Origin: Escherichia coli
GTDB lineage: Bacteria; Pseudomonadota; Gammaproteobacteria; Enterobacterales; Enterobacteriaceae
Assembly: GCF_024502345.1 (NCBI RefSeq)
Contig: NZ_JALDNN010000001.1
DNA: 64,000 nucleotides
Reading direction: 5' to 3' (one strand)
A program made the translations under genes and the position numbers. Positions 10,903 to 11,760 of this stretch are shown piece after piece. The notes below the pieces were generated by a model. It was not told where the DNA came from. It saw only the letters and a program-made list of their open reading frames with translations, and did not search any database. The number at the start of each line of letters is the position of its first letter. Position 1 is the stretch's first letter.

Positions 10903-11760
10903 GGTGCTCCTTTTATTTGCATTATTGCTAAACAATATTTAGCGGATATATTTCAAATGTCAAGCACCATAACAATAAAAAATTATAAATCATTTCAACC
11001 TTATAGGTATGAAATACAAAATCTTAATTGAGGTACAACCTTATATGGATAGCCTCCTTTGGTTTTACCCCCTGATTCAGAGATCATATATAAATGTTTT
11101 TTTGCTCGTGATGCACACAATCGAAACAGTCATTTTAGCGCTTCGCCTGCGCTACAGGAGAAGCTTTTGAAAACAATGCAAGCGAAGCTTGTCTGTATTT
11201 TTGTAAAAGCAACCGCTGCATTATTCTTTTTCTTTATTATAACTGAAGCAAGGGCTAACTCTGCGAAGCCGCTGCGCTTGCTTCTTCGAGTTCCCCTTGC
11301 TTTTCTGCCCTTCGGTTAGAAAAGAAGCCAAACTGCTACCAACCTTGAATCTCTATATTTTTGAATAGACAAACATTACCCGCTCCCTTAATCACCACTA
11401 TCAAAAATAAAAAATCACCTTACAAATAACCCCATACACATCATTTTAGATTGCGACCTTATTAAATTAAAAATTCAACCTTAGATGGAATTTAATGTAC
11501 AAGGAATGTCCTACTGTAACGGAGAATTTTAAACATTAAAAATTACAACTATGGTTTGTCATAGCCTGTACATCTATTCACCTCATGCATATGCACTAAG
11601 AAAGCTTTTTTGAATACTGGAGTTGTCCCTGCTAAAACGGACACGGCTAATTAACTGCTAATATGGCATCACGATATTCGCGTGGCGATTTCATGTTCAA
11701 CCCCTTGTGTGGATGCAGATTATTATAATCCTCTATCTATTCTGCCATTGTTTCCATCAT

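Follow-up and report, generated by a model that had tools for sequence, protein, structure and literature searches.

What role, if any, might be played by a hairpin-dense, GC-richer patch of intergenic DNA that sits beside the debris of insertion sequences (ISs)? The question is raised by positions 11100–11340 of a 64,000-nucleotide stretch of Escherichia coli DNA (NCBI RefSeq assembly GCF_024502345.1, contig NZ_JALDNN010000001.1), a stretch which in its entirety is described here as the window. The patch lies between a gene for a small acidic protein and a transposase remnant, and an initial annotation viewed it as a candidate structured RNA or regulatory element. The answer developed below is that the right-hand part of the patch, 11245–11325, very probably is an origin of transfer (oriT) of a family of mobilisable genomic islands, a copy which has lost its cognate mobC-like and relaxase genes. 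With similar assurance, this oriT may be placed within an IncQ-3-related, MOBP-like mobilisation family.

The basis of this reading is homology, position with regard to relaxase genes, hairpin covariation, strand-specific conservation, the orphan status of the copy, and a conservation of the core that exceeds that of its flanks. The exact nick, the relaxase that would act upon this oriT, and any present-day activity instead are presumed from these observations. A DNA cis-element thus is supported as an interpretation, while an RNA is not. A hairpin-dense, GC-richer intergenic patch beside IS debris need not encode an RNA, but can instead be DNA at which transfer originates.

Position of the core relative to relaxase genes

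Occurrence within E. coli was surveyed by BLAST against 5,426 complete genomes. A core of about 90 nucleotides (nt), corresponding to window positions 11236–11326, is found in 561 of these, at 77–99% identity. The copies are chromosomal only, with a median of one and a maximum of two per genome, and on this copy number a miniature inverted-repeat transposable element (MITE) or a repetitive extragenic palindromic (REP)-type repeat was rejected. The element is carried by about 10% of complete E. coli genomes yet stays unannotated, i.e., as seen in every RefSeq genome inspected. Plasmid and phage collections supplied no DNA-level BLAST match to the segment.

Among close E. coli matches (at least 95% identity), the core is followed by an IS3-family integrase-core pseudogene and then by a type I restriction-modification operon, as is also the case in the window. 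With divergent matches (77–86% identity; L006–L008 and L095, where L numbers designate the loci compared), the core is located about 105–125 nt upstream of a small open reading frame (ORF), which is followed by a relaxase/mobilisation nuclease gene. The relaxase of L008 matches Pfam PF03432, the MobA/VirD2-like nuclease domain, with an E value of 1.4e-26. Such a placement, just ahead of the genes for mobilisation, is customary for an oriT.

This association extends well beyond E. coli. A cross-species scan, for which six aligned relaxases served as query against one genome per bacterial species, yielded 80 loci. The motif AGCAAGGGCTAAC, with up to two mismatches allowed, occurs on the relaxase-coding strand, 440–610 nt before the relaxase start, at 62 of 85 relaxase loci. 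L060 is an outlier, with its motif found 821 nt before the relaxase start, and recognisable though more diverged versions are present, beyond these 62, at L035 and L070. Carriers of the motif include Pantoea, Klebsiella, Pectobacterium, Erwinia, Pseudomonas, Acidithiobacillus, and Gallionella, as well as metagenome-assembled genomes of Deltaproteobacteria, and some of the more distant carriers have relaxases that share just about 30% identity with the query.

Intact relatives possess in addition a TTGACA-N17-TATAAT-like mob promoter, which is seen 25–40 nt beyond the second of the two hairpins considered in the following section. As oriTs commonly overlap the operators of mob promoters, the element might be viewed as purely a protein-binding operator, i.e., one serving autoregulation by a MobC-like protein and involving no nicking. 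The proximity of that promoter is consistent with such a role. The window copy, however, has lost both promoter and genes and nevertheless retains an intact core, and the motif matches a described IncQ-3 oriT, which together make a pure operator quite improbable.

Hairpins, predicted nick region and left-hand DNA

Hairpin 1, the inverted repeat of the oriT (minus strand, 11246–11302), was recognised from single-strand DNA folding and from covariation among relatives. It is made up, on that strand, of an outer stem (11246–11254 with 11294–11302), an inner stem, AACTC/GAGTT (11257–11261 with 11289–11293), and an apical stem, GAAGC/GCTTC (11265–11269 with 11280–11284), with the pairing of all three kept across relatives. 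Folded as minus-strand single-stranded DNA, the long hairpin of 11243–11306 has an energy of −17.3 kcal/mol (z −4.50), and not one of 200 shuffled sequences was as stable. The same architecture recurs in about 60 unique homologues, and in each carrier an extended hairpin with imperfect pairing has the motif AGCAAGGGCTAAC as its 5′ arm. One of the pairings put forward by the initial annotation, gaagcaag-N24-cttgcttc (11245–11252 with 11277–11284), does exist as an 8-bp stem. It is, however, an alternative pairing that is specific to the window rather than the pairing kept in relatives.

The inner stem varies among relatives with its complementarity maintained, appearing as AACTC/GAGTT, AACTG/CAGTT, AACTT/AAGTT, AACC/GGTT, AACCC/GGGTT, AATTC/GAATT, and AAATT/AATTT. 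Alignment of the hairpins with MAFFT puts their 5′ arms out of register, and covariation therefore was judged from fold-derived pair tables, in which a number of positions, including some of the inner stem, display three or four types of pair. Because minimum-energy folds favour pairing, a cross-pairing control was added, i.e., one comparing own with cross complementarity over 62 unique sequences. These sequences have between them 27 different 8-nt 3′ arms. For 16 of the 62, the arm finds a perfect 8/8 complement upstream within the same sequence, versus in none of 3,040 comparisons with the upstream regions of other sequences.

Hairpin 2 (11300–11324) has the form CTTTTCT, loop GCCCTTCGGTT, AGAAAAG, and represents the stem cttttct-N11-agaaaag of the initial annotation. 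It is positioned on the relaxase side of hairpin 1 and, in intact relatives, between hairpin 1 and the mob promoter. Its folding energy, taken alone, is unexceptional (z −1.7 and −1.3). Compensatory stem changes nevertheless are seen within Enterobacterales, i.e., TTTTTTC/GAAAAAA, TTTTTCC/GGAAAAA, CTTTACT/AGTAAAG, and TTTTTA/TAAAAA. An IncQ-3 plasmid (L011) has as analogue CCCCCG-CTCCCTTCGGT-CGGGGG, that is, a nearly identical loop, with CCCTTCGGT shared, upon a different, G+C-rich stem.

Nowhere in the 62-sequence alignment is conservation higher than in the nick region, GTTAGCCCTTGCT, a 13-mer of the minus strand (11247–11259, read from 11259 down to 11247). This block is near-invariant and sits directly 3′ of the hairpin on that strand, with conservation ending 2–3 nt past CTTGCT. 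The order along the minus strand is the arm GAGTT, then the 8 nt AGCCCTTG, and then CT. A nick is predicted between 11249 and 11248 (CCTTG|CT), i.e., 8 nt past the GAGTT arm. The minus-strand oriT stretch carrying that predicted nick is GAGTTAGCCCTTGCTTCAG, within which the cut would come after CCTTG. The strand transferred most likely is the window minus strand, as it is the minus-strand TTAGCCCTTGCT that matches the IncQ-3 putative oriT. For a relaxase family ranging from Enterobacterales to Deltaproteobacteria, a concrete predicted nick site is thereby provided.

Were this oriT to be used, then the minus strand would be the one to leave, presenting the long, imperfect hairpin 1, then 8 nt, and then a nick inside of the near-invariant GTTAGCCCTTG|CT. 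A MobA/VirD2-type relaxase (PF03432, MOBP-like), provided in trans, would have as its recognition site the proximal arm of the hairpin along with the nick region, would cut between 11249 and 11248, and would pilot the strand into a recipient by way of the mating apparatus of a helper plasmid. The left-hand ‘cargo’, consisting of the acidic ORF, sce7726, and sce7725, would be first to enter that recipient. Variable cargo thus would be found on the first-entering side and mob genes on the last-entering side.

Could the hairpins serve instead as a terminator or insulator, i.e., with hairpin 1 and a T-rich run stopping read-through from cargo genes into the mob operon? Relaxase-linked Enterobacterales copies do have TTTTTT following hairpin 1, with plus-strand genes ending just upstream, and a simple terminator scan flags caagcgaagcttg plus a T run at 11178–11192, which is a small, non-conserved stem. 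That same scan, though, flagged neither hairpin 1 nor hairpin 2. Non-enterobacterial members of the family possess the hairpin and the 13-mer without a T run, the window's left-hand neighbour gene is transcribed away from the element, and termination would leave a strand-specific, invariant 13-mer unexplained. Termination as the primary function consequently seems improbable, though it could be a secondary role alongside that of oriT.

It is with the left-hand part of the patch, 11100–11235, that the initial annotation fares less well. The stems that it listed there are present as described, agcgc-N7-gcgct at 11137–11153 and caagc-gaa-gcttg at 11179–11191, as is the rise in G+C content (0.44 over 11100–11299 versus 0.28–0.33 to either side). 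Stems that go beyond chance, however, are limited to the right third, 11245–11325. The left part folds as do its shuffles (z 0.00 for the plus strand, −1.52 for the minus strand), is 72–77% identical to L001 and L004, with 1-nt indels, and has both of its stems disrupted in those homologous islands. Given shuffle-level folding, and stems that are not kept in homologous islands, these left-hand stems are considered to be products of chance. Compensatory change, suggested originally as a check, is found for the two right-hand hairpins and not for the left-hand stems. The left part is common to some orphan islands only, the relaxase-linked islands compared having no homologue of it. Situated on what would be the leading side, it is regarded as ordinary intergenic DNA, poorly conserved, beside the oriT.

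Also correct was the suspicion that the ORF called at 11059–11319 is unconvincing as a protein: single-base indels are found across it in relatives, which rules out these 86 codons as coding, and it spans the conserved hairpins.

That the element might instead be a structured non-coding RNA or RNA leader, e.g., a riboregulator of neighbouring genes, can be credited with a minus-strand RNA fold of the whole segment at z −3.21 (versus −1.06 for the plus strand) and with plus-strand positions at which some relatives have G-T wobbles. A covariance-model search against Rfam over 9500–13000, at permissive thresholds, returned no relevant family, that is, none at E<1 and otherwise two chance-level small nucleolar RNA matches (E 3.9 and 5.2), both of which lie outside of the element. 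No convincing promoter for the element was found, and the left stems, as noted, are at chance level and not conserved. Hairpin 1 is free at its apex both in sequence and in length, the latter being anything between 3 and about 30 nt, while what is invariant is the single-stranded-looking 13-mer. Also counting against an RNA are the association with relaxase genes across phyla and the match to a described plasmid oriT motif. The conserved, structured cis-element of the initial annotation thus survives in the right-hand hairpins, but as DNA: the relaxase-linked position, the strand-specific block matching that of IncQ-3 plasmids, the lack of an Rfam family, and the free apex all favour an oriT, and leave an RNA highly improbable.

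The word GCGAAGC recurs in both orientations, as previously claimed, at 11182 and 11263 and, as its complement GCTTCGC, at 11140. The heptamer is enriched about 6-fold around oriTs of this family, over the interval from −200 to +300, with the hairpin apex its usual place. As a DNA mini-hairpin, d(GCGAAGC) is of notable stability. In IncQ-3 and betaproteobacterial members GCGAAGC is repeated towards the mob genes, near +65, +86, and +108, and these repeats could be candidate sites for an accessory protein. The window's two extra copies (11140 and 11182) are on the leading side, inside the left stems. A 15-nt word, CAACCTTA(T/G)A(T/G)GG.AT, is seen as well both to the left of the oriT (10996–11010 and 11036–11050) and to the right (11476–11491), with the right copy kept in related orphan islands. 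Its count over the window as a whole is not above chance, with three found versus 1.6 expected.

A probable orphan oriT in a variable island

Homology of the window copy to intact relatives stops right after hairpin 2. What in those relatives lies beyond, i.e., the mob promoter, the mobC-like gene, and the relaxase gene, is in the window missing entirely. Comparison of 11300–12130 with all relaxase loci, by tblastx and blastn, found no trace of mobC or relaxase, just one IS match along with short matches to hairpin 2. Nor did tblastn find a relaxase in the 64-kb window, mating-apparatus genes not having been explicitly searched for. It is on these grounds, of promoter and both genes gone and no trace of them either nearby or over the 64 kb, that the copy is described as an orphan. 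A complete island at ssrA, that of strain WCHEC025943 (L096), has the same core and similarly no relaxase. Once its own relaxase gene is gone, such an island probably depends for its movement entirely upon a relaxase and a mating apparatus that are encoded elsewhere.

Is such an orphan still in use? The window core matches relaxase-linked E. coli copies at 64/72 to 69/78 columns (84–89%), and its nick region is identical to theirs. Among orphan cores (L005, L099, L093), 77–81 of 81 bases (95–100%) are identical, with left and right flanks diverged to about 73–78%. Had this 81-nt core changed as fast as its flanks, then some 19 differences would be anticipated, versus the 1–4 positions seen. 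Such low divergence of a core relative to its flanks is taken as evidence of constraint or repeated conversion, and so of probable continued use in trans. Judged from these comparisons, the window copy does not look like a neutral relic, but rather like DNA that is under constraint or subject to repeated conversion. Whether the orphan oriT still works in trans nonetheless is close to an even call.

The opposing view is that of an inert fossil, i.e., a sequence which is derived from an oriT, has been functionless since loss of the relaxase, and simply persists in a decaying island. In favour of this view, searches of the window detected neither relaxase nor mobC, and the core has damaged genes around it, namely an IS3 remnant, a broken hsdM, and a sce7725 truncated by IS3. 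Much of the high identity of E. coli copies, moreover, could reflect recent common descent. The contrast between core and flanks is hard to obtain, though, without constraint or conversion, and the nick region has remained the same as that of copies which retain a relaxase. A fossil accordingly is considered to be possible but doubtful.

A number of further points weigh against reading the element as an oriT, or at least against parts of that reading. About 20 of the relaxase loci lack the motif, forming a distinct subgroup that matches only residues 1–265. Other motif-less loci are on contigs too short upstream. The L009-like relaxase subgroup lacks the motif. The pair tables come from minimum-energy folds, which are biased towards pairing, and the cross-pairing control offsets that bias only in part. 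The predicted nick position draws upon analogy with IncP-type oriTs. As the outer stem puts CCTTGCT on both strands, the call of transferred strand depends on which of these copies is the more conserved. Recombination artefacts may conceivably have given rise to the contrast between core and flanks, and the window copy, sitting in IS debris with no cognate relaxase nearby, could be inactive. Lastly, the 12-bp site of IncQ-3 plasmids is itself described as ‘putative’.

With an orphan oriT retained as the preferred interpretation, the genes to its left become of interest. These are a Gabija-like nuclease plus a UvrD helicase in L001 and L003, two ParB-like genes in L002, L092, and L101, TrlF in L004 and L099, ThiF/MPN in L005, DUF4297-HerA in L100, and nothing in L098. 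At least four independent island types may be distinguished, i.e., with sce7725/6 plus the acidic ORF, Gabija-like, ParB-ParB, and TrlF or HerA plus the acidic ORF. Four island types (window 11233–11248; L001, L002, L004) are identical through AAGCAAGG and diverge 1–3 nt further to the left. The break in identity falls 4–6 nt beyond the predicted nick, with core and right flank up to about 99% identical and left flanks that are unrelated or about 78%-diverged. Breaks so situated suggest recombination at or next to the nick. The oriT nick as the point of cargo exchange between islands, with an orphan oriT serving as a recombination or mobilisation ‘handle’ for defence genes, nevertheless is a speculative and rather unlikely extension. 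If true, then strand exchange by relaxase at the nick, or transfer from an integrated oriT, could shuffle anti-phage defence cassettes at a hotspot.

Among relaxase-linked islands, defence systems adjoin intact oriTs on the presumed leading side in L095 (2155–3988), L007 (2530–4029), and L008 (1–3998). These consist, as a set, of retron Ec48, a SIR2 protein, and an ABC-three-component system, with genes pointing toward the oriT. Two other relaxase-linked islands have genes between the oriT and the mobC-like gene, one for a DUF4209 protein (L094, 4012–6370) and two KwaB-like genes (L097, 9048–10743). Given these defence-type genes, there are cargo slots on both sides of the oriT. The defence genes that would be placed at its first-transferred side are Gabija-like, SIR2, retron Ec48, ABC-three-component, DUF4297-HerA, and sce7725/6. 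With the oriT reading, it becomes understandable that islands at ssrA, ygbA, and leuX could move despite having no relaxase, i.e., by means of a borrowed relaxase and a helper plasmid, islands which carry type I restriction-modification systems along with variable defence cassettes.

The gene closest to the window oriT on its left encodes the small acidic protein (122 residues; 10534–10902, minus strand). It is located between sce7726 and the oriT, is transcribed away from the latter, and would be first on the presumed leading side. A homologue of 57% identity occupies the same position in L004, annotated genes in L005, L099, and L100 match it in size and position (the comparison there being by size and position alone), and there are 31 homologues in Enterobacteriaceae, all unnamed. 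The protein belongs to no Pfam, NCBIfam, PHROG, or PADLOC family. It is predicted to be all-helical, with a predicted local distance difference test (pLDDT) score of 83, and comparison of the model with the PDB gave no significant fold match (best E = 2). That it might be a DNA-mimic anti-restriction protein is a speculative idea. Further left, sce7726 (9089–9991) is intact, while the sce7725-family gene (8617–9082) retains 148 of about 312 residues, having been cut by an IS3 copy (orfA/orfB, 7446–8617). An intact three-gene RES-sce7725-sce7726 unit is found in L097.

To the right, the remnant of an IS3-family transposase (integrase-core; 11647–11967, minus strand) occupies the place that in intact relatives is taken by mobC-like and relaxase genes, with an integrase-core pseudogene annotated at the homologous position in L001–L004. 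It is followed by a broken type I restriction-modification hsdM (12128–13254, plus strand), which is truncated and split into ORFs at 12128–12403 and 12451–13254. In L001–L005 and L096, what comes after the same core and remnant is an intact hsdMSR. In the window (12128–16506) the broken hsdM leads directly to an AIDA/MisL-type autotransporter of 1,062 residues with a PDN-repeat linker, which stands in place of the hsdS and hsdR of related islands.

A tRNA-Leu(CAA) gene, at 20282–20366, adjoins the window island. Positions 17601–21998 are 94% identical to a part of L097 which has a tyrosine recombinase next to tRNA-Leu, the window island being IS-rearranged. A more intact leuX island, that of strain UTME-14, possesses RES-sce7725-sce7726, an oriT of this family, two KwaB-like genes, a mobC-like gene, and a relaxase, with tyrosine recombinases beside tRNA-Leu.

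Comparison with known transfer systems

A close likeness is to IncQ-3 plasmids (pGNB2, pBRST7.6, and relatives), which have a conserved 12-bp putative oriT, 5′-TTACACCTTGCT-3′, upstream of mobC-mobA (PMC7557826). The window minus strand at 11258–11247, TTAGCCCTTGCT, agrees with TTACACCTTGCT at 10 of 12 bases. In pBRST7.6 (L011) the reverse complement, AGCAAGGTGTAA, is found upstream of mobC, much as the family motif is found upstream of mobC-like and relaxase genes. Held in common as well are a hairpin directly 5′ of the motif, on the motif strand, and a second hairpin with a CCCTTCGGT loop. By tblastn against plasmids, the relaxase is 38% identical to MobA of small IncQ-type qnrS2 plasmids such as pBRST7.6, a plasmid which MOB-suite types as MOBP. 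The window copy differs in being chromosomal, within a genomic island, and without mob genes, and differs too in hairpin arms and apex. When the literature was searched in full text, the 10-mer ACACCTTGCT came up in nothing but unrelated primers.

A layout of hairpin, 8 nt, and nick is typical of RP4 and RSF1010. The IncP oriT (RP4/R751) consists of a 19-bp inverted repeat with a nick region, ATCCTG|C, 8 nt from that repeat. The family considered here similarly has an inverted repeat on the relaxase side, a spacer of about 8 nt, and then ..C(C/T)TG|C, with the leading region opposite and with the relaxase gene transcribed away from the oriT. The nick regions are, however, unlike at most positions, TraJ and TraK are lacking, the window copy is not plasmid-borne, and the relaxase scores below threshold against the TraI/MobA(P) NCBIfam model (67 bits versus a cutoff of 250). 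With RSF1010/R1162 (MOBQ1), the oriT is a 10-bp inverted repeat, then 8 nt, and then a nick in TAAGTGCG|CCCT. Shared is a minimal oriT of hairpin, 8-nt spacer, and nick core, upon which a PF03432 relaxase acts together with an accessory protein of MobC type. The nick core, though, is another one, and the relaxase here groups with MOBP-typed plasmids rather than with MOBQ1. In MOBQ4 plasmids, mobC is divergently transcribed (PMC6856555).

Integrative mobilisable elements described as PIME have a core of int, alpA, repA, traJ, and trbJ/trbL, along with an RP4-like oriT (bioRxiv 10.64898/2026.01.12.698999). The nick region of the window family is unlike that of RP4, and membership was rejected, as related intact islands have a mobC-like gene plus a PF03432 relaxase, with neither trbJ/trbL nor repA annotated.

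A February 2026 preprint describes 52 new oriT families upstream of chromosomal relaxases, together with more than 1,500 relaxase-less, oriT-only islands (‘iOriT’) in which defence genes are concentrated near the oriT (Ares-Arroyo et al., bioRxiv 10.64898/2026.01.13.699239). Here likewise an island oriT resembles those found beside chromosomal relaxases, no relaxase was found, and defence genes lie beside the oriT, though with the difference that this copy is in a visibly rearranged, IS-ridden island. By description the window element fits the iOriT category, i.e., it is of a kind that already is known.

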